This document shows, one piece after another, positions 1-13,984 of a DNA stretch of 13,984 nt. Made by a program: the position numbers and the translations under genes. Position 1 is the stretch's first letter. Each line of letters starts with the position of its first letter. The notes beneath the pieces were generated by a model that saw only the letters and a list, made by a program, of their open reading frames with translations, did no database searches and had not been told where the DNA came from. Where the stretch lies: contig JBEQLE010000093.1 of NCBI GenBank assembly GCA_040326155.1, positions 1 through 13,984 of the forward strand, written 5' to 3'. The DNA comes from Leptospirales bacterium. Lineage in GTDB: Bacteria > Spirochaetota > Leptospiria > Turneriellales > JAOUFE01.

Positions 1-90
1 GTTGAGGTCTTCGCCTGCGTCCAGTTTCTGTTTTAATTCACCAGGTAAAATTTCGGCGACATTACTCTTAAAGGGGTTTCCAAATATCAT
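1..90 (-). CDS. Rhodanese-like sulfurtransferase, 5' part only (runs off left edge)
   Basis: Not in the ORF track. ATG at 90 with GGAG SD at 100-97; open to position 1: MIFGNPFKSNVAEILPGELKQKLDAGEDLN. This matches the typical single-domain rhodanese start (EIxPxELKxKLDAGED-xLIDVR). The catalytic Cys would lie outside the window. Confidence 0.62.
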   Translation of the reverse strand, partial: MIFGNPFKSNVAEILPGELKQKLDAGEDLN

Positions 91-118
91 TAGTTTCTCC
101 ACATGCTTTACATTTTAT

Positions 119-146
119 ACTTTAGTATATTATAATATACTAAAGT
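119..146. promoter_or_regulatory. Perfect 28-bp palindrome, candidate repressor operator
   Basis: ACTTTAGTATATTATAATATACTAAAGT is its own reverse complement and is centred on the -10 box above. Confidence 0.65.
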
Positions 147-157
147 TGTACCGTCAA
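129..157 (-). promoter_or_regulatory. sigma70-type promoter of the rhodanese-like gene
   Basis: TTGACG (157-152), 17-nt spacer, TATAAT (134-129), about 40 nt upstream of the ATG at 90. Confidence 0.8.
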
Positions 158-353
158 CTATTTTTTGCAAAAAGGGACTGTTCATAAAATTTCTACAGGA
201 CGATTTGCATACTATGTGGCTTCTATTTAAAGAAATGGCGCCGCCAGTTCTTGCAAAACCCCTGAAAAGTACTCCGTTAGGCGAACTAGAATAAGCGTTG
301 TTTTGGTAAAAATCTATTGACTGAATGTTTTAGCATATGAATCTACGTGAAAC

Positions 354-947
354 ATGAAAACAAAAATTGTTATTTTATTGATCTTATTATTTTCGACTAG
401 AGTTATCGCCGCTGAAAAGTTCGAAGAGGGAGACAAAAGATTTGCTCTGCTTTTCGCTATTATACAGCCTGGAACATTAAACCTGATCTGGGGTTACTTC
501 CCCATAAACGTTCAATTTGATATTGCAATAGATCAAAGGTCGCATCTAAATATAAATGTAGATGCCAATATCGATTTACAGTCACCGTCCTCAGTATATC
601 AAGACAATGAATTTTCTCTGGGACTGAGTTATCGATTTATGTTATGGGCGATCAGCAAATGGCCCGGCGTTACCAGCTTGAATGGATTTTATATTGCCCC
701 CACAGTAGCCTTCAATACTTACACCTCGTATGACACATGGGAAGACAAAACAACCACTGACCGGAACTTCTCTTTTGGAATGGAAATTGGTCAACAGTGG
801 ACCTTTCCAGAAGGATTCTTAATCGGGTGCCGATTGGGTATCGCCTACCCCTCCAGGGTATCCGACTACGAAGCAGGCTACCTGATTCCCGGACAACCGG
901 ACTTGTTTGGCATTACGGGAGGACTCGATATCGGATATGCCTTTTAA
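354..947 (+). CDS. Secreted outer-membrane beta-barrel-like protein (DUF3575-like), function unknown
   Basis: 197 aa. N-terminal signal peptide (MKTKIVILLILLFSTRVIA), amphipathic beta-strand pattern (FSLGLSYRF, GFYIAP, FGMEIGQQW), C-terminal beta-signal GLDIGYAF. Confidence 0.6.
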   Translation: MKTKIVILLILLFSTRVIAAEKFEEGDKRFALLFAIIQPGTLNLIWGYFPINVQFDIAIDQRSHLNINVDANIDLQSPSSVYQDNEFSLGLSYRFMLWAISKWPGVTSLNGFYIAPTVAFNTYTSYDTWEDKTTTDRNFSFGMEIGQQWTFPEGFLIGCRLGIAYPSRVSDYEAGYLIPGQPDLFGITGGLDIGYAF

Positions 948-989
948 AAACGTATCCGTTGTATGACCCTCACGGCCAAAACCTGCCCG

Positions 990-1038
990 AAAAACAGCTA
1001 CGTACGCACGAAAAGAAACCTCTCCATGCGTACGTAGC
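990..1038 (-). terminator. Intrinsic terminator-like hairpin, best formed on the - strand
   Basis: GCTACGTACGCA (997-1008) and TGCGTACGTAGC (1027-1038) are perfect inverted arms. On the - strand G-U pairs extend the stem to 19 bp with a 4-nt loop, followed by UGUUUUU. Confidence 0.55.
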
Positions 1039-1510
1039 CTTCCACTGTCTCAAATCTACATTGTTAACGCATTAGCTGGCATGTTTATGAAATGTATATT
1101 TGCGTTTTCTCTTTTTACATGTATGGCAACTAATGCTTGCCTTTTACATTTAAATACAGTCTTTGTCACTCGACGTATCTTTGCAATAAAATTTTATTCA
1201 CAAAACGAACATAAACAGTTTTTTGCTACAGTATACGAACGTTTTAGGGCAAATAATGCGCTTCTACGAATTTATGAACTTCAATTTAATAAAAAATTTT
1301 ATTTGAACTCAGATTCTACATCAAACTATGGAAGCAACGCGGCTATACAACTTATAGCATAGAAAGAAATAAAGACAAAAAGAGCCTTGCAATGACAAAA
1401 AAGAAAAAACATAACGCAAATACAATGATATTCTAATTTGCTAATAAAAAATTCTTGCCTTTCTGGAGTAGGAATTTATTAGTGTTCCATACTATTCAAC
1501 GGAGTTGTTT

Positions 1511-2707
1511 ATGCCTAAAGATGAAAAATTTCTAAATAAAACGCCAATACTGGACCAACTAGACGATGGTCCGTGGCCAAGCTTTATTAAAGCCTTTAAA
1601 GAATATGGGGAAAAAACTAAAAAACCTATTCTTCGCGGCGCTATTGATCAATTGGAATATTCATATAAAACCCGGCTCGGGTATTGGAAGGGAGGGACCG
1701 TCGGAGTAAAAGGTTACGGTGCTGGAGTCATCAGCCGCTTTTCAACGCTTCCCGACAAGTTTCCCGAAGCTCACGAGTTTCATACAGTACGCATACAGCC
1801 CACACCCGCTTTTCATTATAACACAAAAGAGCTGCGAGATTTATGCGACGCCTGGGAAGAGCATGGCTCTGGTATTATGACAATGCATGGCCAAACCGGT
1901 AACCTGCAATTTTTAGGCGCCACGGAAGATAATGTACAACTGTTCTTCGACAAGGTGAATAAACAAGGCTGGGACATGGGCGGAGCAGGTGCGGCAACTA
2001 GAACGGGCAACTCCTGTGTTGGACCGGCGCGATGCGAAATGGCCTGTTATGATACCCTTGAAACCATGTATCAGGTGATGCAAAATTATACCGACCAGAT
2101 ACACCGACCCGAGTATCCTTATAAAATGAAATTCAAATTCTCCGGGTGTCCGAACGACTGTAATAACAGTATTATGCGTTCAGACCTGGCCACCATTGGT
2201 ATCTGGAAAGATGCAATTCAAGTCGACCAGGCCGAAGTTAAAAAGTACATCGACAAACAGGGTAAAGACTATCTTGTAAACAACGTAGCTCTAAAATGCC
2301 CCACCAAAGCCATTGAATTTGATGGTGACGAAATTAAAATTGAAAATGACGATTGTGTAAAGTGTATGCACTGTCTGAATGTAATGACGAAAGCGCTCTC
2401 GATTGGTAAAGAGAGAGGGGCTGCTTTAATGATCGGCGGTAAAGGTCACTTAAAAGTTGGTTCCATGTTGGGTTCTCTGGTCGTCCCTTTTATTAAGCTC
2501 GACACTGATGAAGACAAACAAAAATATATTGCCTTTCTCGATAACATTATTGAGTGGTGGGCCGATAACGCGCTGGAGCATGAAAGAATCGGCGAAACTA
2601 TTGAGCGAATTGGAATGCAGGGTTTCTTACAAGCGGTCGGAATTGAACCCCATATTGATATGGTCGAAAGCCCCCGAGACAATCCGTTTTTTATGGCGGA
2701 GTACTGA
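1511..2707 (+). CDS. dsrA: Dissimilatory sulfite reductase alpha subunit, oxidative (reverse) type
   Basis: GGAG SD at 1501-1504 favours ATG 1511 (398 aa). Motifs: TPILDQLDDGPWPSF, YWKGGTV, FHTVRIQP, HGQTG, siroheme-[4Fe-4S] CX5C (CVGPARC) and CX3C (KFKFSGCPNDC), ferredoxin CPT...CVKCMHC, ENA-type LEHERIGE. Confidence 0.97.
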   Translation: MPKDEKFLNKTPILDQLDDGPWPSFIKAFKEYGEKTKKPILRGAIDQLEYSYKTRLGYWKGGTVGVKGYGAGVISRFSTLPDKFPEAHEFHTVRIQPTPAFHYNTKELRDLCDAWEEHGSGIMTMHGQTGNLQFLGATEDNVQLFFDKVNKQGWDMGGAGAATRTGNSCVGPARCEMACYDTLETMYQVMQNYTDQIHRPEYPYKMKFKFSGCPNDCNNSIMRSDLATIGIWKDAIQVDQAEVKKYIDKQGKDYLVNNVALKCPTKAIEFDGDEIKIENDDCVKCMHCLNVMTKALSIGKERGAALMIGGKGHLKVGSMLGSLVVPFIKLDTDEDKQKYIAFLDNIIEWWADNALEHERIGETIERIGMQGFLQAVGIEPHIDMVESPRDNPFFMAEY

Positions 2708-2726
2708 GACTGAGACTGAGACTGAA
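2703..2726 (+). repeat. Hexanucleotide tandem repeat (ACTGAG)x3 + ACTGAA overlapping the dsrA stop
   Basis: Read directly: actgag actgag actgag actgaa. It places TGA in frame at 2705, 2711, 2717 and 2723. Confidence 0.9.
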
Positions 2727-2746
2727 ATCTTTAACGAGGAAAAAAA

Positions 2747-3823
2747 ATGAACACAGAACGAACATACAAGACCGTCGAGCATGGCATTAGACATTACAAA
2801 GACTCTTTGCACCCCACGGTAAAAAAGAACTACGGAAAATGGAAATACCATGACCGCCCCCGTCCGGGCGTACTTCGACATGTGGGTGAAAGCGGTGATG
2901 AACTTTTTACTGTTCGAGCGGGAACCCAGCGACAGGTAACTGTAGATACTGTCCGTTTTTTATGTGACATGGCCGATAAATACACAGACGGGTACCTTCG
3001 ATTTACCGTTCGAAACAACGTTGAATTTATGACCCCGAACGAAGCGAATATCGAACCTCTTATTAAAGCGTTGCAAGATGGCGGACACCCTGTCGGCGGA
3101 ACCGGTAATTCAATTTCTGCTGTTTCCCACACTCAGGGCTGGTTGCATTGTGATATTCCCGCAACCGACGCTTCTGGAGTCAATAAAAGTGTTATGGATA
3201 ATCTCTATGACGATTTTATTAAAGAAGAGATGCCGAACCGGGTTCGACTCTCCACCTCTTGTTGTGAAATCAATTGCGGTGGCCAGGCCGATGTAGCCAT
3301 TATAGTCCAACACACTCGTCCCCCTCGAATTAACCACGATCTACTTAGTAACATTTGCGAAATGCCCAAAGCGGTAGCGCGTTGCCCCGTGGCAGCCATT
3401 CGACCTACCCAGGTAAATGGGAAACCATCGCTTATGGTAGTCGAAGAAAAATGCATGGCCTGTGGGGCCTGTTTTGGCGCCTGCCCGGCAATGGAAATTA
3501 ACCATCCTGAACACTCGAAGCTGGCAATTTGGATAGGTGGAAAGCATTCCAACGCGAGGACGAAACCGACACGCATGAAACTTGTTGCGCACGGTTTACC
3601 GAATAATGCCCCTCGTTGGCCCGAAGTAAACGAAATTGTAAAGAATATATTAATGACGTACAAAGAAGACGCCCGAGACTGGGAAAGAGTCGGAGAATGG
3701 GTTGACCGAATAGGCTGGAAAAAGTTTTTTAGTAAAACCGGGCTTCCTTTTGATAAGTGGATGATCGACAATTATCGCCATGCGCGAGTATCGTTCAACC
3801 AGTCAACGCATGTCCGTTTTTAA
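2747..3823 (+). CDS. dsrB: Dissimilatory sulfite reductase beta subunit, oxidative (reverse) type
   Basis: 358 aa, GAGG SD at 2736-2739. Motifs: NYGKWKYHDRPRPGVL, HTQGWLHCDIPATDASG, SCCEINCGG, ARCPVAAIRP, CMACGACFGACP, PNNAPRWPE, C-terminal STHVRF. These match rDsrB of sulfur oxidisers. Confidence 0.97.
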   Translation: MNTERTYKTVEHGIRHYKDSLHPTVKKNYGKWKYHDRPRPGVLRHVGESGDELFTVRAGTQRQVTVDTVRFLCDMADKYTDGYLRFTVRNNVEFMTPNEANIEPLIKALQDGGHPVGGTGNSISAVSHTQGWLHCDIPATDASGVNKSVMDNLYDDFIKEEMPNRVRLSTSCCEINCGGQADVAIIVQHTRPPRINHDLLSNICEMPKAVARCPVAAIRPTQVNGKPSLMVVEEKCMACGACFGACPAMEINHPEHSKLAIWIGGKHSNARTKPTRMKLVAHGLPNNAPRWPEVNEIVKNILMTYKEDARDWERVGEWVDRIGWKKFFSKTGLPFDKWMIDNYRHARVSFNQSTHVRF

Positions 3824-3836
3824 TCAGAGGTAAATC

Positions 3837-5621
3837 GTGTCGTCAAATAAATACCTGGAACCAAAAGATCTTGAAAATAACCCTGACCTGAAATTTGCAA
3901 TGGAGTATGAATACCCACCGTATTCAACCGAAACAGGGGTGAGTAAAATTTTAACGGGAGAGAACTCTCATAAGTGTCCTGTTTACGTTAAACGGGTTCC
4001 CCCGTGTACCAACTCCTGCCCGGCCGGTGAAGATATTCGCGGCTACCAGAATATATTGCGTGGTGTTGAAGTCGTTGAAGGTATAGACGACAAATGGGAA
4101 GCCGCCTGGAGACGTCTTGTAGATAGCAACCCTTTTCCAGCTGTTATGGGGCGAATTTGCCCTGCTCCCTGCGAAGGTGGTTGCAATCGCGGCGAGGTCG
4201 ATGAAACAGTTGGTATAAACTCGATTGAACACGCTCTTGGCGAGTATGCACTTGAAAAAGGTTTTGGTCTGGTACAACCCGGTCAAACTCTTCCTGCAGA
4301 GACCGGAAAAAAAGTGGCCGTGATCGGGGCTGGCCCGGCGGGACTTTCTACTGCCTATCAGTTGCGTAAAAAAGGCCACGCTGTAACTATATATGAATCT
4401 CAACAAAAAACCGGTGGAATGATGCGATATGGCATTATGGGTTACCGTGTTGACCGTAAAATACTCGATGCTGAAATTCAAAGAATTCTAGATCTGGGTG
4501 TAGAGCTGAAAACCGGGGTAAGTATTGGCACAGATGTGTCATTAAATGATCTCGAAAAACAGTACGACGCGGTATTTCTCGGGCCAGGGGCCCAACAAGG
4601 TAGAAACCTGCCCGTTACCGGTTTTGAAAACTCACCTTATGTAAGTAACGCAATTAAATTTCTAATGGATTATGAACAAAGCCCTGAAAAAATGACGATT
4701 GGTAAGAACATTGTTGTTTTGGGAGACGGTGACGTCGCCATGGATGTTGCTCGGCTTGCGCTTCGCCTTGGTTCCAAAGCCACCATTTTGTCAGCCGTAG
4801 ACCGTGAAGATATGAACTGCAGCAAATACGAATTTGACGAAGCTGTAACCGAAGGAACCGAATTTACGTACAATACCTCCGTTACGGAAGTTCTTAAGGA
4901 TGGAGAAAAAGTACGAGCCTTGAAATGTGTTAAAATGGTAAAAAAAGAGAAGGGCGAAGATGGCTGGAACCATGCCATTCCGTTTCTTCGTTACAAACCT
5001 CTGGAAGGAAGCGAATTTGAATTAGAAACCGATATGGTTGTCGCTTCGATCGGACAAACTACAAATATGAAAGGTTTTGAAGAGGTAGCAAACAAGAAAG
5101 GTATGTTACCAGTCGACGTTCACCATCAGGTAAAAGATCGTGAGAATATTTTTGCCGGTGGCGACGCTGTAAAAATTGATCTTATTACTACTGCCGTTGG
5201 TCATGGAAAAAAAGCGGCTGAATCGATCGATGTCTATTTGAGTGGAAAACCCTACCCGGCAAAAACTCGTTATGAAATTGCCGACTTTAAAAAAATGCAT
5301 CCTTACTTTTTTGAAGCAGCCGACAAGTCAAAAAGAGGTCATCGTAAAATCGAGAATGTAGTTGGAAATTTCGAAGAGATACTCGAACCGTTGAATGCTC
5401 AATGGACGGAATGGGAAGCCAACCGATGTATGAGCTGCGGCCTTTGTTTTACCTGTAAACAATGCCTTCTGTATTGCCCCAAAGAAGCAATAAGTTTCGA
5501 TAGAAAAAAACCTATTGGTGAAACGATGTTTACCGACTACAACAAATGTGTTGGGTGCCATGTTTGTCACGACATTTGTCCCTCTGGATATATTGATATG
5601 GCTATGGGTGAAGACCTCTAA
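3837..5621 (+). CDS. dsrL: DsrL, iron-sulfur flavoprotein NAD(P)H:acceptor oxidoreductase (DsrL-1-like, no YRR motif)
   Basis: 594 aa, GTG start with AGAGGT SD. Motifs: SHKCPVY..PPCTNSCPAGEDIR, NPFPAVMGRICPAPCEGGCNR, FAD GAGPAG, second Rossmann GDGDVAMD, C-terminal RCMSCGLCFTCKQC..CP and CVGCHVCHDICP. Lies directly behind dsrB. Confidence 0.93.
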   Translation: MSSNKYLEPKDLENNPDLKFAMEYEYPPYSTETGVSKILTGENSHKCPVYVKRVPPCTNSCPAGEDIRGYQNILRGVEVVEGIDDKWEAAWRRLVDSNPFPAVMGRICPAPCEGGCNRGEVDETVGINSIEHALGEYALEKGFGLVQPGQTLPAETGKKVAVIGAGPAGLSTAYQLRKKGHAVTIYESQQKTGGMMRYGIMGYRVDRKILDAEIQRILDLGVELKTGVSIGTDVSLNDLEKQYDAVFLGPGAQQGRNLPVTGFENSPYVSNAIKFLMDYEQSPEKMTIGKNIVVLGDGDVAMDVARLALRLGSKATILSAVDREDMNCSKYEFDEAVTEGTEFTYNTSVTEVLKDGEKVRALKCVKMVKKEKGEDGWNHAIPFLRYKPLEGSEFELETDMVVASIGQTTNMKGFEEVANKKGMLPVDVHHQVKDRENIFAGGDAVKIDLITTAVGHGKKAAESIDVYLSGKPYPAKTRYEIADFKKMHPYFFEAADKSKRGHRKIENVVGNFEEILEPLNAQWTEWEANRCMSCGLCFTCKQCLLYCPKEAISFDRKKPIGETMFTDYNKCVGCHVCHDICPSGYIDMAMGEDL

Positions 5622-5658
5622 AGTAAAATTTTTCTGACACAATTATAATAAAAACAGC

Positions 5659-5708
5659 AAATAGTCCAGTTTAAAGTAAATCTTTTCTTTACAAAACTGC
5701 GACTATTT
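5659..5708. terminator. Long imperfect hairpin after dsrL (terminator or mRNA-stabilising stem)
   Basis: Paired segments AAATAGTC/GACTATTT, CAGTTT/AAACTG and GTAAA/TTTAC with a 7-nt loop. No strong U-tract on the + strand. Confidence 0.45.
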
Positions 5709-5736
5709 AGTTATCGTAGTATATACTATTAAATAG

Positions 5737-7458
5737 ATGATAACTATGCAAGACCAAGAATATGATCAACTGTTTCATTTTAAACGATGTGAATTCTCGA
5801 ATGAAGAACTTGATGATATTGCAATTCAAGCGAAAACAATAACTCAGATATTGAAAAAACCGGGACTTGAAATTCCCCTTCAAAATCTGATGAATGAACT
5901 GTTTCGTTACTCTTTTCGACAACATTTTCTAAACATACAAGCTGACTTTATCGATAAAAAGCTTGAAAATCACCCCGACCAGGAAACGCACGGCTTAGTT
6001 TCAGGAGATACTTTTACAAATATCTGCGAAGAAAAAGAGCTGCCAGTTGAACTAACTATATTAAAAAATGGAACTGAAATCATCATCGACCTCTCCCATT
6101 ATGGCAAAATGCCTGAAGAAGAGATGTTGAATATACGAAACGTTTTTAGTTCCATTGAAAAGTCACTGAATGAGTCGAAGCAACACCAGATCTACAGTCG
6201 TGAACAATTAACTGAAAAATTTTCATCTGGAATTCATCTGGCTTTATTGAGTCTTCTGGGTATTGGTATCGCTAAAGAAAATTTTCAAGTAGCGACTACC
6301 AGCCATTCTACTCAATTTCGAATTATCCTGCCATTTGACATGTTTGAGAAAAAACCTGTAGAAGAAACAGCTTCCGAGCGCACTGACAAAAACGAAGGGC
6401 TGCTAAAAAAACTCTTTACCAGCCTGCAATATACACTAATCGAATTTGACCTTGCTGGAAACATTAAACACGTCGACGGGGATATTTTTAAACTTCTCGA
6501 TTTAAAACATAACGATACCGATCAATTGCTAAAATTACTTCCTTCCCGGTTTTTTGAAGATATTATCTGGGGGCCGTTCAGTATTAAAAGTTTAGAAAGC
6601 TTCGAAAATTACCGAGTTACAATTAGTGGGAACAAAGATACACTGACCTGTCTTTTTAATATCAGTGGAGTTAAGTATCAAAATGCGAGTGTCGTTACAC
6701 TATGGCAAGCTGTCAATGTTTCACATTCCATTGGTAATTTCAGTGATGGCGCTATTTTCGAAAATATCAATATAATGAAAATCGTCAGGCCCTATATTCC
6801 TCATATGATTTTAGATAAAGCCAGAGACTGTATTCGTAAGGGTCTTAAAGAATTACCCAACGAAAGAAAAGAAGTCACGGTCCTGTTTGCCGATCTGATC
6901 GGGTTTACACAAAAAAGTGAATCTCTGCCGCATAACGAAGTAATAGGCTTATTGAATTTAACCATGAGTACCATCGTGCAGTCGATTGAACGTTATTCCG
7001 GTTATGTCGATAAATTTATTGGCGATGGAATTATGTGTGTTTTTATGGAACCCTTATCAGCAGTCATATCGGCTATAGAAATTCAGAACAACTTACTGAA
7101 CCTGAATGAATTTCGTAAAATTGGGGGCCAGGACCCGCTTGAACTTAGAATAGGTATAAACACCGGTAAAGTTATTTTGGGTAGTATTGGCATTAAAAGC
7201 AGAATGGACTGGACCGCTTTAGGCGATGTGGTAAATACTGCGTCACGTATTGAGAAAGTATCTAAAAAATACGCTGTGTTAATAGGCGATTCAACATTCA
7301 AAAGTGTCGAACACGCGATTGAAATTACTAAAATGTTAAATACACAGTTCAAGGGTAAAAAAGATAATTATGCCATCTATTACGTAAAGTCAGCCATATA
7401 TGAACATGAAGGCAAAGAACATAAAATTGAACTAAACGAAGAATCTACGGAATTTTAA
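5737..7458 (+). CDS. Soluble class III (IIIb-like) adenylate cyclase with N-terminal GHKL-like and PAS-like regions
   Basis: 573 aa (alternative ATG at 5746). Catalytic motifs: VLFADLIGFT, DKFIGDG (ATP-specifying Lys), RIGINTG, DWTALGDVVNTASRIE. No clear transmembrane helix. The N-terminal domain assignments are by eye. Confidence 0.88.
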   Translation: MITMQDQEYDQLFHFKRCEFSNEELDDIAIQAKTITQILKKPGLEIPLQNLMNELFRYSFRQHFLNIQADFIDKKLENHPDQETHGLVSGDTFTNICEEKELPVELTILKNGTEIIIDLSHYGKMPEEEMLNIRNVFSSIEKSLNESKQHQIYSREQLTEKFSSGIHLALLSLLGIGIAKENFQVATTSHSTQFRIILPFDMFEKKPVEETASERTDKNEGLLKKLFTSLQYTLIEFDLAGNIKHVDGDIFKLLDLKHNDTDQLLKLLPSRFFEDIIWGPFSIKSLESFENYRVTISGNKDTLTCLFNISGVKYQNASVVTLWQAVNVSHSIGNFSDGAIFENINIMKIVRPYIPHMILDKARDCIRKGLKELPNERKEVTVLFADLIGFTQKSESLPHNEVIGLLNLTMSTIVQSIERYSGYVDKFIGDGIMCVFMEPLSAVISAIEIQNNLLNLNEFRKIGGQDPLELRIGINTGKVILGSIGIKSRMDWTALGDVVNTASRIEKVSKKYAVLIGDSTFKSVEHAIEITKMLNTQFKGKKDNYAIYYVKSAIYEHEGKEHKIELNEESTEF

Positions 7459-7459
7459 A

Positions 7460-7864
7460 CTACTTCCATGTATTTGATCCATCCGTGTAAAATTCTTTTT
7501 TCCAGACCGGGGTTTGCGCCTTAATTGTATCGAGAATAAAACGATTGGCCTCATATGCCTCTTTTCGGTGAGCCGAGGCTGTAATTATAACCACTGAAGC
7601 TTCTCCAATGTTGACACGACCAACTCTGTGCATGGCAGAAGCATGTGTTAAATTCCATTTGTTTTTAGCACCAACGACTATTTCCTCCATACTTTTTTCA
7701 GCCATCGGTTTTTGCACTTCATACTCCAGGTAAGAGACACCCTTTCCATTATGGACATTTCGTGTTTTACCAATAAAAATGACTAACCCCCCGATTTCAG
7801 AAGAGTCTGCTTCAGAAATTAAGGCGTCCAAATCGATAGATTTTTCTGTTATATACAAAATCAT
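7460..7864 (-). CDS. moaE: Molybdopterin synthase catalytic subunit
   Basis: GGLVIFIGKTRN, YLEYE, HRVGRVNIGEASV, SAHRKEAYEA, PVWKKE. ATGA overlap with the moaD stop. Confidence 0.95.
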   Translation of the reverse strand: MILYITEKSIDLDALISEADSSEIGGLVIFIGKTRNVHNGKGVSYLEYEVQKPMAEKSMEEIVVGAKNKWNLTHASAMHRVGRVNIGEASVVIITASAHRKEAYEANRFILDTIKAQTPVWKKEFYTDGSNTWK

Positions 7865-8103
7865 CCTCCACTAGAAGGCGGTAAAATATAAATTTTGTCG
7901 TGGTCCGACAAACGATAATCCCTACCTATAATATTTTCATTCACTGCCACCCGACATATTTGCAAAAGTTTTTCAGAGGCAGGATTTTTTTCTACCAAAG
8001 TTGCGACAAGGTCGGCCACGCATCCGCCGGGTGTTAATACAACTTCCATTTGTGCTTCAAAATAATCTTTCAAAGCGGCGTAATTGTGAACCAGAACATT
8101 CAT
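7861..8103 (-). CDS. moaD: Molybdopterin synthase sulfur carrier subunit
   Basis: Likely start is ATG 8103 (GGAGGT SD within the end of moaA), giving 80 aa: MNVLVHNYAALKD...VAVNE...ILPPSSGG with the C-terminal di-glycine. Confidence 0.92.
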   Translation of the reverse strand: MNVLVHNYAALKDYFEAQMEVVLTPGGCVADLVATLVEKNPASEKLLQICRVAVNENIIGRDYRLSDHDKIYILPPSSGG

Positions 8104-8104
8104 A

Positions 8105-9097
8105 TTAACCTCCAATCGAACGCATGTCAGGACCGATTCCCCCGAAATATTTGGAATTTTTTTGCAACATTGCAGTTTCCAGCAGTTCACCATATTTTGC
8201 AGGCGCAACGCCTCCAGTAGAAATCGATTCGGTTGCTCCAATGCATCCGTAAAGAGAACCACCGCTGTCCATTCTTAATCGGTCACACTTTTCACAAAAC
8301 GGACTTGATGTGTTTGCAATAAACCCGAATTGATACCCTTGTTCCGTAATCCATTTTTCGCAGGTTTCATTGCCATCTGTTCCAATTTTTTTTATATCAA
8401 ACTGAGACTGTATCTTTTGCAAGGCAACTGCCATAGGTAAAAACAGATCGGTGTCTGCGGAAATAGCGTTCATAAATTCCAGAAACCGAATTTCAATATT
8501 GTTTGCTGAGGCATATTCAAAAAGCGGTAGAATCTCAGTTTCATTCATTCCTTTTAAAAGTACGGCGTTTACCTTTACGGTTAATCCGGCTTCCTGGGCG
8601 TCGGCTATTCCCTTTAAAACAGATTTCAACTTGTCTGTTCCAGTAATCGTATTATATCTTTTCGAATCTATTGCATCCAAAGAAACATTCACTCCGCTCA
8701 GGCCAGCATGTTTTAAACGATATGCAAATTTTGCCAGGTCAGCTCCATTTGTCGTCATATGAACTTCAGAAATTCCAAACGATTTTATCTCAGATACACA
8801 ATCTACAATGCCAGGAATAAGCAATGGCTCCCCGCCGGTTATCCGAATTTTTCTGAAATGATTTTGCTTATGCAAATATTTTACTCTCAACAGTAACTCT
8901 CGAATTGAAATCCGCTTGTCTGTTTTATCTTGCTTTTGGGATATATTTTTCGCTTCCGGCTCAGTACAATATATACAATTAAAATTACATTTTCGGGTAA
9001 GGCTCAAGCGCAATACATTAAAACGTTTTTGCCCGGTCGTTTGTAAATCGAGCGTTTGTAAACCGGGCTTTTGCAATGTAGAGGTTTCCTTTACCAT
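8105..9097 (-). CDS. moaA: GTP 3',8-cyclase (radical SAM)
   Basis: LRLSLTRKCNFNCIYC (CX3CX2C), RITGGEPL, TTNG, NVSLD, RFLEFM, FCEKCDRLR...GC auxiliary cluster, C-terminal MRSIGG. Confidence 0.95.
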   Translation of the reverse strand: MVKETSTLQKPGLQTLDLQTTGQKRFNVLRLSLTRKCNFNCIYCTEPEAKNISQKQDKTDKRISIRELLLRVKYLHKQNHFRKIRITGGEPLLIPGIVDCVSEIKSFGISEVHMTTNGADLAKFAYRLKHAGLSGVNVSLDAIDSKRYNTITGTDKLKSVLKGIADAQEAGLTVKVNAVLLKGMNETEILPLFEYASANNIEIRFLEFMNAISADTDLFLPMAVALQKIQSQFDIKKIGTDGNETCEKWITEQGYQFGFIANTSSPFCEKCDRLRMDSGGSLYGCIGATESISTGGVAPAKYGELLETAMLQKNSKYFGGIGPDMRSIGG

Positions 9098-10278
9098 GGT
9101 AAAAACTCCACCGTATCGCCAACCAAAAGTTCTCTGTTTTCCACTTCGTGCAGAGCCACACCGTCAGTTTCGGGCATAGCAAGCAGGTCGCCAGATCCTT
9201 TATGAGGGCGAGTTGTAACGGTAATCTGGTTGTTCCTGGTATCCGCTTTTACAGGAAAATACTCGGGACGATCCCCTCGTAGAGTTCGCTGCGTTTGCAG
9301 GTTGGCGCGAACCGGTTCCGAGAAAGAACGACATGACCTTTTTTTCAAGTAAGGCTCAACAAAAATTTTAAACCCGACCGATACAGAGAATGGATTTCCT
9401 GGCAGTCCAAAAACGGCTTTTTCCCCTTTGACTCCAAACCAGATTGGTTTTCCCGGTTTCATTTTTACTTTATGAAAGACTTGTTTCACTCCGGCGGCTT
9501 CCAGGGAAGAAGGTACGTAATCGGTATCTCCCATAGAGACGCCCCCACTCATTAAAACTACATCATATTCGAGAGCCTTTTGAATAGCCAGATCGAGGCT
9601 CTGTTTGTCATCGGCCACTATAGAATAATAAGAAGGTTCAATACCAATAGATTGCAGACCATACAATAAGGAGTAATAATTTACATCGCGAATTTGTGTG
9701 GGTTTTGGTTCCTGATCAATCGGAATAATTTCAGACCCGGTAGAAATTATGGCTACGGTAGGTAGATTATAAACCGAGACAACAGATTTTCCTGTGGCCG
9801 CCAAAGCAGTAATCGAACGTATATCCAAAACACTGTTTTTTTGTATTATTATATCTTCAGCTGAGGCGATAACCCCTTTTGTATCAATGTTATGCCATTT
9901 TTCAGGATTCTTGTCAGGAATTGTAATACCGTCTTGCGACTCAATACAATCTTCTACTTTGAATAGAACATCCCAGGGTGCCGGCAAGGAGGCACCGGTC
10001 ATAATTTTAACACAATCTCCGCCGGTGGGTGCGTTTTCATCAAAATCGCCAGCGAGTATCGTTCCAGATGGGGAAAAACTCACCTGTCCCTTTTGAAGAT
10101 CGGAAAGACGCACAGCGTAACCATCCACACAGGCCCGATGAAAAGGAGGATAGTCCCGGTCAGCACAAATATCTTCCGCCAGTGTAAAACCACGAGCTTC
10201 GCCAAGTTTTAATTTTCGGATCTCTGGTTCAGGAACCGATTGTAATACAAGCTCAAGAGCTTCTTTTATAGTTACCAT
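9091..10278 (-). CDS. moeA: Molybdopterin molybdenumtransferase
   Basis: Likely start is ATG 10278 (AAGGAG SD), giving 395 aa. Motifs: PPFHRACVDGYA, IMTGA, STGSE, SGGVSMGD, KPGKP, GLPGNP. Confidence 0.95.
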   Translation of the reverse strand: MVTIKEALELVLQSVPEPEIRKLKLGEARGFTLAEDICADRDYPPFHRACVDGYAVRLSDLQKGQVSFSPSGTILAGDFDENAPTGGDCVKIMTGASLPAPWDVLFKVEDCIESQDGITIPDKNPEKWHNIDTKGVIASAEDIIIQKNSVLDIRSITALAATGKSVVSVYNLPTVAIISTGSEIIPIDQEPKPTQIRDVNYYSLLYGLQSIGIEPSYYSIVADDKQSLDLAIQKALEYDVVLMSGGVSMGDTDYVPSSLEAAGVKQVFHKVKMKPGKPIWFGVKGEKAVFGLPGNPFSVSVGFKIFVEPYLKKRSCRSFSEPVRANLQTQRTLRGDRPEYFPVKADTRNNQITVTTRPHKGSGDLLAMPETDGVALHEVENRELLVGDTVEFLPW

Positions 10279-10281
10279 TTC

Positions 10282-10374
10282 ACTCCTTTGCAAGTTCGGC
10301 AGGCTTGAAGGTTTCCCCGCAAACCCTATCGTTTTACAAACCATGGTTTCACTTTAGGTTTGCAAAATCGGAGT
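10282..10374 (-). ncRNA. Moco-family riboswitch (molybdenum/tungsten cofactor), P3-less variant
   Basis: The - strand reads ACTCCGA TTTTGCAAAC CTAAAGTGAAACCATG GTTTGTAAAA CGAT AGGGTTTGCGGG GAAA CCTTCAAGCCT GCCGAACTTGCAAA GGAGT. P1 ACUCC/GGAGU sequesters the SD. P2 carries a CCUAA..AUGG tetraloop-receptor-like motif, P4 has a GAAA loop, and P5 is UGC/GCA. It lies directly upstream of moeA. Confidence 0.88.
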
Positions 10375-10379
10375 TTTTT

Positions 10380-10410
10380 AATATTTACTTAAAACTAAAT
10401 ATTTTGTCAA
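10380..10410 (-). promoter_or_regulatory. Promoter of the moeA operon with overlapping inverted repeat
   Basis: Perfect TTGACA (10410-10405), 17-nt spacer, weak -10 TAAATA (10387-10382). The predicted start falls at the riboswitch 5' end. AATATTTA-N8-TAAATATT spans 10380-10403. Confidence 0.55.
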
Positions 10411-10422
10411 CCTCTTTTGAAA

Positions 10423-10842
10423 TCAATGTCCGGTAGATACGCCAAAGGCCGCAGCTAGAAAAATCAAAAGTTGTACAAACACAAGCGTCGCAAAAATATG
10501 ATTCTTGCTTTTTAAATACGAAAAAAATATGACAAAATAAGTAGAAAAACTGATTATAGCCAAAACTACAATCCCTGAAAAACTTATTATATCGCCATAC
10601 TGTAAATTATGAATCCAGTTCCAGCCGGTCGGAACCGAAGACTGGGCCGCATATTCACTTGCCCTTAATTTCAACAGCTCTGCAGTTTTTTCAATAGGTA
10701 TTCGATTTGGTAAAAGTTCAAAAATATAGACTAAAAAGGAAGCAGTTAAAAAGACAAACCCAATGTACAAAAATATACGTAGGACTTTTGAATAAAGATT
10801 CCTCTCTTCATGCCCTTTTTCGTTGTCCCAATCGCGTTTCAT
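10423..10842 (-). CDS. Small membrane protein, DUF1634-like partner of TauE
   Basis: Likely start is ATG 10842 (TAATG overlap with the TauE stop), giving 139 aa with three hydrophobic segments and a PTGWNW...GD motif seen in proteins encoded beside this TauE subfamily. Confidence 0.7.
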   Translation of the reverse strand: MKRDWDNEKGHEERNLYSKVLRIFLYIGFVFLTASFLVYIFELLPNRIPIEKTAELLKLRASEYAAQSSVPTGWNWIHNLQYGDIISFSGIVVLAIISFSTYFVIFFSYLKSKNHIFATLVFVQLLIFLAAAFGVSTGH

Positions 10843-11813
10843 TACCAAACTCCCAACCCTTTCAATAAAGATCGTATTCCAGTCAGCCCTAAAAGTATAA
10901 TAACTCCCCATTTTATAAGGCCGGGTTTCGTTTTTTCTAATACCTTTACACCAATTCGTGTTCCAATCATCATTCCTGCCATGGAAGGAACGACAATAAG
11001 CGGTATAATGGCCGAATTATTTAAGTAAACCCAGGCCGCCGTGGTGTCGGTAAGAGAGAGTATAAATATGCTGGTACCCACTGCTATTTTCAACGGCGCG
11101 CCTAAGACCAGGTTTAAAACCGGTACATTCGCCCAGCCCGCACCCAGACCAAACATGCCCGCCAGAAAACCAATAATAACAAAAAGAAACATGGCCGGTA
11201 TCACTCGATGCACTTTCCAGGCGACGTTTTTACCTGTGGACTCTTCTAAATATGTTCCGCCAATACCAAGTTTTTTGCCAAGTGAATCTTCTTTGGCAAC
11301 ATGAGGAAATTCAGATTTTTTTGCCAACAGTAATATAAAAACAATTCCAACGATAATAATACCAAGAAAAATCTGCACTAAATGAGCGGGTAGTTGAAGA
11401 CCAATTTTGGCACCCACAATAGAACTTGCTGAGGCAATTAAAGCCATGGGAATCGCCAGGCGCAAATTTGCCAGGCCCTTTTTTAACAACGCAGGGCTTG
11501 CCGATAAAGCTCCGGCAAGAGCGACCATTAAACCAGCTCCGCGAACAAAATCTATACCAATCGGAAAAAACCCGGAAACAATAGGCACAAACAATACTCC
11601 TCCGCCAATTCCCGCAGCAATGGCAACGATTCCGAGTATAAAAGTAAATACAAATAGAGTAAGTGGTAATATCCACCAGGCTTTATCTGTACCAGCCACT
11701 TCATTCGTCAATTGGGTAACATCAGAAGCGTCTACAGCAAAAAGAGAAAATATACCGACAGAAAAAGCAGCCAGGCAAACGATTATAAATATTTTAAAAC
11801 GAAAAATTCTCAC
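10842..11813 (-). CDS. TauE/SafE family (TSUP) sulfite/sulfur-compound transporter
   Basis: 323 aa polytopic membrane protein with duplicated family motifs GIGGGVLFVP and GLGAGWANVP, plus AVGTS. GTG start overlaps the dsrH stop (GTGA). Confidence 0.88.
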   Translation of the reverse strand: MRIFRFKIFIIVCLAAFSVGIFSLFAVDASDVTQLTNEVAGTDKAWWILPLTLFVFTFILGIVAIAAGIGGGVLFVPIVSGFFPIGIDFVRGAGLMVALAGALSASPALLKKGLANLRLAIPMALIASASSIVGAKIGLQLPAHLVQIFLGIIIVGIVFILLLAKKSEFPHVAKEDSLGKKLGIGGTYLEESTGKNVAWKVHRVIPAMFLFVIIGFLAGMFGLGAGWANVPVLNLVLGAPLKIAVGTSIFILSLTDTTAAWVYLNNSAIIPLIVVPSMAGMMIGTRIGVKVLEKTKPGLIKWGVIILLGLTGIRSLLKGLGVW

Positions 11814-12103
11814 AGCCAGGTATTAACTATATTTGCGGATACCAAATCAACAAATTTTCCATAATCGGCTATTTCTACACCGGGAATAAGTTTTTCAATA
11901 CCTCTGGCTTTTACATCAGCGCTTATTGCAAACACAGAGCTCTTTTCAGCCAGTTCTAAAATGATTTTTTCATAAGTTGTGCCAGCCATCGCAGCATAAA
12001 CTCCGTCTTCAAGTAGGAGCACACTCTCGCCATCTTTTATAAAACGCAAAGCGGTATCAAGTGAGCTGGAACTAAATGGTGATTTATTTATAGTGTGTAA
12101 CAT
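11810..12103 (-). CDS. dsrH: DsrH subunit of the DsrEFH sulfurtransferase
   Basis: MLHTINKSPF, LLLEDGVYAA, DVKARG, DYGKFVDL, C-terminal WL. GAGGA SD. Confidence 0.93.
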   Translation of the reverse strand: MLHTINKSPFSSSSLDTALRFIKDGESVLLLEDGVYAAMAGTTYEKIILELAEKSSVFAISADVKARGIEKLIPGVEIADYGKFVDLVSANIVNTWL

Positions 12104-12121
12104 TCTTATTCCTCTTGTCGA

Positions 12122-12505
12122 TTAAAAAGGGAAAATAGCTTCTTGTTCGTTCATCAAACGATTAGCTTCATTAGAATCAATGACATCAACATCAACAATC
12201 AAGTCATCACTGGTTAAACCACGCTCATCAAGAGAGGTTTTATCCACATACAGTTTTTCTATGTCATACCCTTCGAGGGTCCGGTAGGTTTTTACGAAAC
12301 CTTTAATTCCAAGTTCTGACGTATCCTGGTTTTTCAGCAAAGCCAAAATACCATCGCCAACAAAAAGCAAAGTTATATCCTGCTCATAAGCGCCTGTAAT
12401 TAAAATAAACTCCAACCCTTCATACGGATAAATTGTGCCGTGGGGGGCCTTCTGCATAATAAACATTATCTTTTTAATTTTTTCTTCAGTTTGTTCTTCA
12501 GACAT
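12122..12505 (-). CDS. dsrF: DsrF subunit of the DsrEFH sulfurtransferase
   Basis: KAPHGTIYPYEGLE, FVGDG, QDT...K.F..TYRTL..YD, SLDERGL. Confidence 0.93.
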   Translation of the reverse strand: MSEEQTEEKIKKIMFIMQKAPHGTIYPYEGLEFILITGAYEQDITLLFVGDGILALLKNQDTSELGIKGFVKTYRTLEGYDIEKLYVDKTSLDERGLTSDDLIVDVDVIDSNEANRLMNEQEAIFPF

Positions 12506-12513
12506 TTTTCCCC

Positions 12514-12870
12514 CTAAGCTCCGAATGTAATAATACGGTCAGCTTCTATGGTCATATCCACCAGCTGCCCGAGTCCGGAAATTCTCATATTGTCGTTTAA
12601 ATTCTCTTCGGTAATGCCCCGTCTTTTAGCGGCAGCAATACACACAACAATATCTATCCCTTTACTGCCAAGTTCTGACCACCGTTTACCAACATGGCGG
12701 TCATCCGTTGGAGGGTCCATCAACTTAGAAGCATTTATTACACCGTCATTGTAAAAAAAGACACCAATAATTTCATGGCCCTTTTCAAGAGCAGCCACGG
12801 TAAAATTATAAGCGCTATCTGAGGCCTCATGGTTATAAGGCCCATCTTGTAATAAAATTGCAAACTTCAT
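12514..12870 (-). CDS. dsrE: DsrE subunit of the DsrEFH sulfurtransferase
   Basis: Likely start is ATG 12870, giving 118 aa. MKFAIL..GPYNHEASDSAY, VFFYNDGV, PP.DDRH, VVCIAAAKRRG (active-site Cys77), ISGLGQL. Confidence 0.95.
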   Translation of the reverse strand: MKFAILLQDGPYNHEASDSAYNFTVAALEKGHEIIGVFFYNDGVINASKLMDPPTDDRHVGKRWSELGSKGIDIVVCIAAAKRRGITEENLNDNMRISGLGQLVDMTIEADRIITFGA

Positions 12871-12877
12871 AACACCC

Positions 12878-13387
12878 TTACATAAATAGATTGATGTCAG
12901 AGTCAGCGGCTTCTTCAAGCATAGTCGCTGCGCCTGCAAAGTCAATGCCGTCTATAAAGTCTTCTTTCTTGAAGCCAAATACGTCCATAGTCATCTGGCA
13001 TGCAATCAATCGAACGCCAGACTCTAAAGCCATATCTCGCAGAGTTTCAACCGTTGCAACTCCCTTCTTTTTGAAAGTTTTCTTCATCATGCTGGTAGCA
13101 AAACGATTGAAAAAAGGCACATTGTTAGCCACCATGTTTGGAATGGGCCAGTTCAAACCCTGGAACCATTTTGGCCCAAAGGGCATTTTCATCGGCATCG
13201 CCGGGTTTGCTCCCGGGCTTATTTGAAAACCTGGTTTTTTCAACAATATTTTTAGACCATAAAATGTAAAAAATATCGTCACGTCCATGTCCAACGCTGC
13301 GGCAGTCGAGCCTAAAATTACCGGTGGGTAAGCCCAGTCAAGAGTACCCTGTGATGCAACCATTACAACTTTTGTTTGTTTAGCCAT
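12878..13387 (-). CDS. dsrE2: DsrE2-type sulfur carrier protein
   Basis: GTLDWAYPP, STAAAL, FFTFYGL, NPAMPM, KGVA, IACQMT (conserved Cys). Lies directly behind tusA, as in sulfur oxidisers. Confidence 0.9.
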   Translation of the reverse strand: MAKQTKVVMVASQGTLDWAYPPVILGSTAAALDMDVTIFFTFYGLKILLKKPGFQISPGANPAMPMKMPFGPKWFQGLNWPIPNMVANNVPFFNRFATSMMKKTFKKKGVATVETLRDMALESGVRLIACQMTMDVFGFKKEDFIDGIDFAGAATMLEEAADSDINLFM

Positions 13388-13399
13388 TATAAAACCTCG

Positions 13400-13633
13400 T
13401 TACTTCTTTTTAATAAAATAGACAAATTCGCCATCGTTTTCTTCACGATCGACAATTTCGTTGCCCGTACGACGCGCCCACGAGTCCATATCGTTTACTG
13501 AGCCAGGGTCGGTCGCAATTACTTTCAAAATTTGACCTTTGGTCATTCCATCGATTGTTTTTTTCGTTTTCAAAACAGGAAGGGGACAGTTCATTCCCCG
13601 AGCATCAAGTACTTCATTTTCAGTTACACTCAT
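13400..13633 (-). CDS. tusA: TusA sulfur carrier protein
   Basis: Likely start is ATG 13633 (GGAGG SD at 13645-13641), giving 77 aa. LDARGMNCPLP (CPxP), ATDPGS. Confidence 0.95.
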   Translation of the reverse strand: MSVTENEVLDARGMNCPLPVLKTKKTIDGMTKGQILKVIATDPGSVNDMDSWARRTGNEIVDREENDGEFVYFIKKK

Positions 13634-13701: not shown

Positions 13702-13728
13702 GGTTTTTTTGCCTATAGGTGTGCTTTT

Positions 13729-13757
13729 TTTACACAACTTGTATGGCATTTTATAAG
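13729..13757 (+). promoter_or_regulatory. Candidate sigma70 promoter divergent from tusA
   Basis: TTTACA (13729-13734), 17-nt spacer, TATAAG (13752-13757). The predicted start is just before the structured element. Confidence 0.4.
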
Positions 13758-13766
13758 AATAAAAGT

Positions 13767-13984
13767 AATGCGGGGGCAAGTCTGCCCCCTGACTCTGGCT
13801 TTTCAACTGAAAGAGCCGACGTCACCCCCGACGTATTTAATTTCCGGCTTACCGCCGGAGGGTGTCACTTTTCTTTTGCCAACAAAAGAAAAGTAACCAA
13901 AAGAAAATTGCCAAGCCGGCATCGCCCTCCTGGCGATGGGGCTTGGATAAGCTCGGCCCTCGTGGCCTCGTACTGAACGGGGGG
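13767..13984. repeat. GC-rich multi-hairpin element (REP/MITE-like repeat or structured ncRNA), probably continuing beyond the window
   Basis: Consecutive hairpins: GGGGGCA/TGCCCCC (13772-13789), GGCTTTTC/GAAAGAGCC (13797-13817), TCCGGC/GCCGGA (13843-13859), ACTTTTCTTTTG/CAAAAGAAAAGT (13867-13894), CCAAGCC..CATCGCC/GGCGATG..GGCTTGG (13911-13946). Confidence 0.6.

Follow-up and report, generated by a model that had tools for sequence, protein, structure and literature searches.

Genes for most of a probable Dsr-based sulfur-oxidation pathway in an uncultured spirochaete of the Leptospira/Turneriella class

Does a spirochaete related to Leptospira carry genes for the oxidation of sulfur through the Dsr proteins, or do the genes belong to another organism, or to a reaction which runs in the other direction? 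The question is raised by a stretch of DNA of 13,984 nt from a Leptospirales bacterium (assembly GCA_040326155.1, contig JBEQLE010000093.1), called the window in what follows, in which dsrA, dsrB and dsrL face a row of sulfur-relay and molybdenum-cofactor (Moco) genes on the opposite strand. The window is an entire contig (C164) of a draft genome (G000) which consists of 171 contigs (4.26 Mb, 39.6% G+C) and was found to be 94.7% complete and 1.7% contaminated. The reading favoured here, with a probability of roughly 0.78, is that the window encodes the greater part of a genuine pathway of Dsr-based sulfur oxidation, located on the chromosome of an uncultured spirochaete of the Leptospira/Turneriella class. 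All four sampled species of the host family carry the Dsr pathway.

Gene identities were assigned from Pfam and NCBIfam profile matches, judged against the curated cut-offs. The host family was represented by four species-level genomes (G000, G001, G002 and G003) from three genera, G002 and G003 forming genus g3, and was compared with 37 other relatives (30 from the rest of the order and 7 from the rest of the class). The genes of the window on which the argument turns were as follows.

1505/1511-2707, plus strand: dsrA (TIGR02064, 509.3 bits, cut-off 392.85)
2747-3823, plus strand: dsrB (TIGR02066, 486.6 bits, cut-off 341.5)
3837-5621, plus strand: dsrL-like gene for an NAD(P)H-binding Fe-S flavoprotein (NF009410, 685 bits, cut-off 516)
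5737-7458, plus strand: gene for a class III adenylate/guanylate cyclase (PF00211)
7460-7864, minus strand: moaE, molybdopterin synthase catalytic subunit (PF02391, 125 bits)
about 7861-8100, minus strand: moaD, molybdopterin synthase sulfur-carrier subunit (Pfam match; C-terminus LPPSSGG)
8105-9097, minus strand: moaA, radical-SAM GTP 3',8-cyclase (Radical_SAM and Mob_synth_C; TIGR02666, 243.7 bits, below the cut-off of 284)
9091-10278/10344, minus strand: moeA, molybdopterin molybdotransferase (Pfam and NCBIfam matches)
10267-10385, minus strand: Moco riboswitch (RF01055, 76.9 bits, gathering score 36, E 1.6e-17)
10423-10911, minus strand: gene for a DUF1634-like small membrane protein (PF07843, E 0.007, below cut-off; three predicted helices)
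10842-11813, minus strand: gene for a TauE/SafE-family anion transporter (PF01925, 123.5 bits, cut-off 32.6)
11810-12103, minus strand: dsrH (TIGR03011, 89 bits, cut-off 49.2)
12122-12505, minus strand: dsrF (TIGR03010, 128.1 bits, cut-off 94.15)
12514-12945, minus strand: dsrE (TIGR03012, 126.2 bits, cut-off 89.25, match from residue 27)
12878-13387, minus strand: dsrE2 (PF13686, 168 bits; NF047629, 191.2 bits, just below the cut-off of 210)
13400-13633/13639, minus strand: tusA (PF01206, 89.7 bits; ATG start probably 13633)

On the plus strand dsrA-dsrB-dsrL and the cyclase gene converge on the minus-strand row tusA-dsrE2-dsrEFH-tauE-DUF1634-like-moeA-moaA-moaD-moaE, an arrangement which had been proposed from the sequence alone (the original prediction) and which the Pfam and NCBIfam matches upheld. 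The database gene call for DsrA is 398 aa long, so that its start is probably at 1511. The dsrL-like gene lies directly behind dsrB; its product has Fer4_20 and Pyr_redox_2 domains and a C-terminal 2x[4Fe-4S] domain, and is 54-57% identical to the product of the gene that follows dsrB in loci of Chlorobium, Magnetococcales, SAR324 and Nitrospinota. Among the relay proteins, TusA keeps the CPLP cysteine motif, DsrE2 retains a cysteine and DsrE, the true start of which is probably near 12870 (MKFAILL...), has one in the motif ...VVCIAAA.... The dsrEFH genes are present in a single copy in the genome. The TauE protein has approximately nine hydrophobic segments, fitting a multi-pass topology. The gene behind it had been named a DUF1634 gene; the small three-helix membrane protein is indeed present, but the family assignment rests below the cut-off for PF07843.

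As the window is a full contig, the absence of a gene from it says nothing about the genome. Profile search agreed with the original prediction that dsrC, dsrMKJOP, dsrN and dsrD are absent from the window, and the following genes were located on other contigs of G000.

C101, 288-623: dsrC (NCBIfam, 168 bits, cut-off 53.5)
C101, 1218-6210: dsrMKJOP (bits, with cut-offs in brackets: DsrM 495 (300), DsrK 717 (400), DsrJ 143 (100), DsrO 306 (200), DsrP 453 (350))
C90, 25905-27684, minus strand: dsrC2 (DsrC/TusE-like) and, adjacent to it, a dsrN-like amidase gene (TIGR00379, 465 bits)
C90, 30709-33582: gene for a DMSO-reductase-family enzyme of 957 aa, with no RR motif or twin-arginine signal
C22, 51741-53003, minus strand: type III sulfide:quinone reductase (SQR) gene (566 bits, cut-off 525)

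The first 6.2 kb of C101 (288-6210) holds dsrC, a 174-codon gene of no known family and dsrMKJOP; their absence from a complete genome had been named as an outcome that would refute the proposal, and this does not apply to G000. The DsrC encoded there ends in ...QACKFAGLPKPTGCV and keeps both conserved cysteines; the second DsrC-like protein, on C90, keeps the last cysteine only. The dsrN-like gene is a homologue of cobyrinic-acid-diamide synthase, the family to which DsrN belongs. The search for missing genes which had been suggested was therefore successful for dsrC, dsrMKJOP and sqr, but not for aprA or soxB, neither of which gave a match over the cut-off. The SQR gene was missed among strong Pyr_redox_2 matches and was found after the threshold was relaxed. 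The model that it matched is named 'selenoprotein subtype'; the SQR frame is an uninterrupted 420 codons and so has no in-frame selenocysteine stop. A periplasmic nitrate reductase (NapA; 1020 bits, cut-off 904) with a twin-arginine signal is encoded on C159, and C127 carries an alternative-complex-III-like operon.

Taken together, the predicted proteins suggest a route in which the type III SQR would make sulfane sulfur, which would be passed as persulfide from TusA through DsrE2 and DsrEFH to DsrC. DsrAB would then oxidise the DsrC-bound sulfur to sulfite, with electrons leaving via DsrL to NAD(P)+ and via DsrMKJOP to the quinone pool, from which the periplasmic nitrate reductase would provide an outlet. 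The sulfite would most likely be exported by the TauE/DUF1634-like pair encoded behind dsrH.

A Leptospira-like spirochaete had been suspected as the host, and flaA, the closest DsrA loci and the relatives of the cyclase all support this. The flagellar sheath gene flaA was found over the cut-off in 4/4 family genomes (three matches in G000) and in 0/14 control genomes. Within the named genome collection, the three loci with the most similar DsrA (75-79% identity) belong to two genomes labelled 'Spirochaetia bacterium' and one labelled 'Turneriellaceae bacterium'. Best-hit taxonomy of the cyclase, which had been proposed as a check, gave only Spirochaetia genomes, Turneriella parva (40%) and Turneriella sp. 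as named full-length relatives; judged by these relatives the cyclase, whose N-terminal domain (approximately 370 aa) is uncharacterised, is a signalling gene of the host lineage and not a dsr gene. More than 25 cyclase-domain matches to it are present in G000, one of them a full-length paralogue on C91 (45% identical). The dsrA gene was over the cut-off in 4/4 family genomes but in none of the 30 others of the order or the 7 of the class, which makes it plausible that the dsr system was assembled horizontally in the host family.

Gene order varies within the family. In the other three genomes dsrABL and tusA-dsrE2-dsrEFH lie on separate contigs. The latter group belongs, in G001, to a one-strand row, dsrC-x-dsrMKJOP-tusA-dsrE2-dsrEFH-tauE-x-moeA-moaA-moaD-moaE, with a moaC/B fusion 2 kb upstream of dsrC; in both genomes of genus g3 neither tauE nor Moco genes follow tusA-dsrE2-dsrEFH. 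The convergent layout is peculiar to G000 within the four-genome family. The architecture had been called non-canonical, and this stands in so far as the order differs from those of Proteobacteria and Chlorobi; the convergence itself is local to G000.

The affiliation of the contig and the direction of the pathway were both weighed against other explanations, and the findings that count against the reading given above are brought together here. The contig might be mis-binned or chimeric, with its dsr genes derived from a co-occurring proteobacterium or another sulfur oxidiser. The genome is a draft of many contigs and the window a short, whole contig which ends in a dispersed repeat; G+C is 44-47% over dsrABL compared to 35-37% over the cyclase gene, and the tetranucleotide correlation of dsrABL alone with the genome is 0.875, low but inside the spread of random 4.1-kb pieces (median 0.95, 5th percentile 0.843). 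The dsrL/cyclase junction (5621-5737) was bridged by no independent contig or read. Two public DNA runs from one study (5-6% of words, 80% likeness) gave pieces of 151-399 nt from relatives, none of them spanning 5621-5737 or either contig end; no RNA run was listed, and no exact overlap of >=12 nt was found between the ends of C164 and any contig end. Against this, both halves of the window separately point to one lineage. The dsrABL proteins are 75-84% identical to those of the other three family genomes, which are their closest kin, and the minus-strand row recurs in the same order in G001 inside a 224-kb contig, in which 145/198 open reading frames (ORFs) of >=100 codons match G000, 132 of them with >70% of the ORF covered (median identity 51%), the matches being arranged in syntenic blocks. 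The convergent cyclase/moaE-moaD-moaA-moeA junction is kept in two metagenome contigs from other assemblies (75-78% nucleotide identity). In a relative with a DsrA of 82% identity, DsrA and a cyclase homologue (42%) were each found on contigs of 28,157 and 30,445 nt, and the two genes probably share a contig there. The composition of C164 as a whole is typical of the genome (tetranucleotide correlation 0.982; median 0.979 for 41 contigs of 9-20 kb). An artefact of this kind was judged very improbable and, since both halves are closest to the same family, a chimera would leave the biology unchanged.

A less remote alternative is that the same genes work reductively or in both directions, in sulfite reduction or in the disproportionation of sulfur or thiosulfate, with DsrL feeding in electrons from NAD(P)H and TauE importing sulfite. 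Such a reading would fit the failure to find a recognised sulfite-oxidising enzyme: aprA and soxB were each over the cut-off in 0/4 family genomes, and G000 gave no match to PF00174 (Sor-type). The large subunit of RuBisCO was likewise found in 0/4 family genomes, so that autotrophy by that route is unsupported, and DsrH is without any cysteine, where the Allochromatium protein has a conserved one near residue 20. The DsrAB tree (38 rows without Gammaproteobacteria and typical reductive references; quick search, SH-aLRT support only) grouped the window with two family relatives (support 100), joined by a further Spirochaetia genome at 82, and placed the spirochaete rows inside a set of 17 rows (100) with Magnetococcales, Nitrospinota and Nitrospirota, the root being unfixed; the nearest non-spirochaete DsrAB is from Magnetococcales. 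When the divergent DsrA clade of Spirochaetota was added, the Desulfobulbales outgroup rows fell with Chlorobi and SAR324, and dsrL was found by tblastn directly behind dsrB in 5/8 Desulfobulbales/Desulfobacterales loci among the best 80 DsrA matches (loci concerned: L024, L046, L049, L051, L082, L085 and L086). Rows which carry dsrL and join Chlorobi and SAR324 make a poor reductive outgroup; Thermodesulfobacteriota were dropped from that role, and the DsrA and DsrAB trees obtained here cannot root the oxidative type. The closeness of the Desulfobulbales dsrABL loci in the DsrA tree also leans towards the reductive alternative, as does supplementary Table 6 of PMC11406059, in which DiSCo typing makes the DsrM, K, J and P proteins of Turneriellales reductive. 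In the same table, however, DsrABC, EFH and L from two Turneriellales genomes are assigned to the oxidative type.

On the other side, the window encodes a full relay from TusA and DsrE2 to DsrEFH. In Allochromatium the relay of dsrEFH, tusA and dsrE2 is tied to oxidation; the Magnetococcales affinity of DsrAB speaks in the same direction, and SQR and NapA together provide a sulfide-to-nitrate chain. DsrD (PF08679) was found in 0/4 family genomes and 0/5 other dsr-carrying Spirochaetota, in a search without a positive control, and this absence is weak evidence. With dsrL directly after dsrB there is no dsrD at its usual place, and no dsrD-like ORF was seen behind dsrB in the Thermodesulfobacteriota loci, where dsrL sits instead. 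The sulfur-oxidising character which had been predicted for the locus fits the presence of dsrL and dsrEFH and, with that reservation, the failure to find dsrD. On balance a reductive or bidirectional role appears unlikely, and the Dsr system probably works oxidatively.

If the pathway does run in the oxidative direction, its product has to be disposed of. Since aprA, soxB and PF00174 were not found, the TauE protein of the operon, a putative sulfite exporter, is the best candidate for sulfite disposal. G000 appears to be without RuBisCO and without every recognised sulfite oxidiser (sat was not searched for and no model for SoeA was available), and on this basis looks like a sulfur-oxidising heterotroph. 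A module of TauE, the DUF1634-like protein, DsrE2 and TusA was found in 12/48 Chlorobiota loci, just upstream of dsrC-ABL-EFH-MKJOP, and in these 12 loci the DUF1634-like homologue likewise lies behind TauE; by analogy the DUF1634-like protein is a putative partner of TauE. A second candidate for sulfite disposal, predicted to face the cytoplasm, is the DMSO-reductase-family enzyme on C90, the gene for which is followed by one for a 528-aa Fe-S/membrane fusion protein with a TtrB/DmsB-like region in its first 190 residues. No NCBIfam equivalog was over the cut-off for this enzyme, and protein and plasmid searches gave generic names only, its homologues (52-76%) being present in many lineages which are not known as sulfur oxidisers. 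Naming it SoeA was considered unjustified, as its close homologues are widespread and none is so named. That the last step of Dsr oxidation in this family involves no known sulfite oxidiser, with sulfite going to the TauE/DUF1634-like pair or to the C90 enzyme, is a tentative proposal which we regard as doubtful. If true, the TauE/DUF1634-like/DsrE2/TusA module, common to this family and green sulfur bacteria, would be an unrecognised core part of the reverse Dsr (rDsr) system.

The Moco genes behind the relay row bear on the same step. The genes moaA, moaD, moaE and moeA are single copy and are the only ones in G000, and translation confirmed the LPPSSGG ending which had been reported for MoaD. 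The likely start of moeA is the ATG at 10278, preceded by an AAAGGAG ribosome-binding site at which the Moco riboswitch ends; the match covers model positions 1-135 of 135, and G001 has the riboswitch at the same place (L097:8260-8380, minus strand, 74 bits). A full-length RF01055 match before moeA-moaA-moaD-moaE is the classic context and the element itself is ordinary; what sets it apart here is only that a dsr sulfur-relay operon comes immediately before it. A TTGACA box lies 20 nt upstream, and the Moco genes may have a promoter of their own besides the riboswitch. Since the riboswitch, which the original prediction had not noted, splits the minus-strand row, moeA-moaA-moaD-moaE is a separately regulated unit and the row is not one uniform operon. 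In at least two genera the unit has been carried along with the sulfur-relay operon. Between G000 and G001, MoaA is 31% and MoeA 37% identical, compared to 46-68% for the neighbouring Dsr relay proteins in the same order; this may reflect replacement of the Moco genes or a faster rate of change in them.

This adjacency could be functional, with Moco serving a molybdoenzyme that completes the pathway and TusA possibly supplying sulfur to MoaD; the C90 enzyme would be the candidate, as a dehydrogenase of sulfite or of a sulfur compound. In keeping with this, two genera share the order tusA...tauE-x-[riboswitch]-moeA-moaA-moaD-moaE and moaC/B flanks the locus in G001, the unit supplies the only copies of its genes in G000, and the enzyme, which is without a twin-arginine signal, is encoded 4.5 kb from the dsrN-like gene and dsrC2 in G000 and 14 kb from moaE in G001, and was found in 4/4 family genomes and 0/37 other relatives. 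The 4/4 pattern, however, represents one lineage and hence one event, and the enzyme was found in 0/5 other dsr-carrying Spirochaetota; the occurrence of its close homologues in many lineages not known as sulfur oxidisers, and never under the name SoeA, also speaks against such a role. The riboswitch and the possible promoter indicate separate control, NapA needs Moco too, the relay row of genus g3 has neither tauE nor Moco genes behind it, and Moco genes were found within 10 kb of 0/80 dsr loci from other lineages. That the synthesis of Moco is functionally linked to the oxidation of sulfur is thus possible but was judged rather improbable.

The remaining features of the window lie at its two ends.

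1-102, minus strand: N-terminal 34 codons of a gene which continues past the left end of the contig
354-947, plus strand: gene for an exported protein of 197 aa (weak DUF3575 and OMP_b-brl matches, E 0.004-0.014)
996-1039: perfect inverted repeat of 20 bp, followed by a T run
13841-13907: copy of a dispersed intergenic repeat of approximately 65 nt (nucleotide matches across G000)

A rhodanese-like gene had been placed at the left by the original prediction, and this was not confirmed. The product of 354-947 has a hydrophobic, signal-like N-terminus (residues 1-23) and no more than weak matches to beta-barrel families; it has two paralogues in G000 (30-31% identity) and is probably a small outer-membrane beta-barrel protein outside the dsr system, not a rhodanese. 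The fragment at 1-102 is the sole remaining candidate place; no family could be assigned to it, and a relaxed tblastn search with its 34 residues gave nothing meaningful. Three rhodanese-domain genes are present in G000, all outside C164 and none at a contig end. The inverted repeat is likely a terminator between the beta-barrel gene and the promoter region of dsrA. The approximately 460 nt before dsrA are AT-rich, and an ORF there (1081-1362) is without a homologue and is probably no gene. At the right end, the repeat at 13841-13907 was matched 16 more times in the genome (39-69 nt, 88-93% identity), on 11 contigs and in several cases less than 150 nt from a contig end; it is probably a member of a small family of intergenic repeats which fragments the assembly, and probably explains the break at the right end of C164. 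An ORF at 13719-13976 overlaps the repeat and is probably spurious.

The distribution of Dsr genes in the wider phylum was surveyed in 401 evenly sampled Spirochaetota genomes from 153 genera, 400 genomes other than G000 being assigned to its phylum; dsrA was found in 26/401 genomes and 14/153 genera (survey loci L145-L167). In 20 of the loci examined, DsrA is 42-47% identical to that of the window and forms a separate deep clade, the commonest type. Family f13 has dsrABL at 65-66% identity, and genome G060 has the order dsrOP-dsrEFH-dsrAB-dsrL at 48% identity. By sequence identity, the Spirochaetota hold at least three kinds of DsrAB.

The original prediction regarded the lineage as an unexpected one for such a system, and in this it had been overtaken by published work. 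As far as the available parts of these papers go, reductive-type Dsr was reported in genomes of Spirochaetes in 2021 (PMC8477390), Spirochaetota were listed among lineages with oxidative dsr sets in 2024 (ISME J, PMC11406059), and rdsrAB was described in 2025 in five Leptospirae genomes, with binning error argued against (ISME Commun, PMC12687941). The supplementary tables of PMC11406059 include Leptospirae;Turneriellales genomes with DsrABC-EFH-L-MKJOP and without DsrD, so that oxidative Dsr in Leptospirae/Turneriellales is already in print. No main-text mention of Turneriellales together with dsr was found, the mention known being that in the supplementary table. No account of the TauE and DUF1634-like genes, of the riboswitch-headed Moco unit or of the missing sulfite oxidiser was found in the available parts of the published work on Spirochaetota Dsr; these features and the gene order may nevertheless be in print already.

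The genome adds a well-supported case to the recent evidence that reduced sulfur can serve free-living relatives of Leptospira as an energy source; to our knowledge, no cultured member of the group shows such energy gain. It also offers handles for experiments, namely a complete gene list over three contigs, an ancestral gene order, a TauE/DUF1634-like pair common to this family and Chlorobi, and a Moco unit under riboswitch control which comes after the relay genes.

When compared to known systems, the window resembles the loci of Chlorobiaceae (L022, L023, L028 and others), which likewise have dsrA-dsrB-dsrL adjacent and carry dsrEFH and dsrMKJOP, with DsrA 59-62% and DsrB 68-74% identical to those of the window. 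The Chlorobi order, all on one strand, is tauE-x-dsrE2-tusA-dsrC-dsrABL-dsrEFH-dsrMKJOP, with Moco genes within 10 kb in 0/48 loci, whereas here the row runs tusA-dsrE2-dsrEFH-tauE-x, dsrABL lies apart or convergent and the Moco genes come next. With Allochromatium vinosum the protein families are held in common, as are the presumed relay of TusA, DsrE2, DsrEFH, DsrC and DsrAB and the outlets DsrL and DsrMKJOP. The gene order differs, that of A. vinosum being dsrABEFHCMKLJOPNRS with a separate rhd-tusA-dsrE2; no rhodanese was confirmed at the window locus, and neither SoeABC nor AprAB-Sat was recognised in G000, within the limits of the search given above.

The disposal of sulfite has a parallel in Methylovirgula thiovorans HY1, in which, according to the available part of PMC9371685, rDsr occurs without Apr, Sat or Soe and a TauE-like sulfite exporter has been proposed, as here. 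HY1 has a periplasmic SorAB for the exported sulfite, whereas G000 has no PF00174 match, and in the window the tauE gene forms part of the sulfur-relay operon.

The nearest systems overall are the published rDsr genomes of Leptospirae/Turneriellales, which are of the same phylum and class and have the same gene complement, again without DsrD. The dsr contigs of the published Leptospirae genomes have Leptospirae-like neighbours and were held not to be binning errors, the same conclusion as was reached here. One published Leptospirae/Turneriellales genome has sat, aprAB and qmoABC, whereas aprA was found in none of the four family genomes. In their available parts PMC11406059 and PMC12687941 give presence or absence and type, and gene order is not described there. 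G000 adds a further member to this group, the description of which is recent; its locus has undergone a local rearrangement and does not represent a new system.

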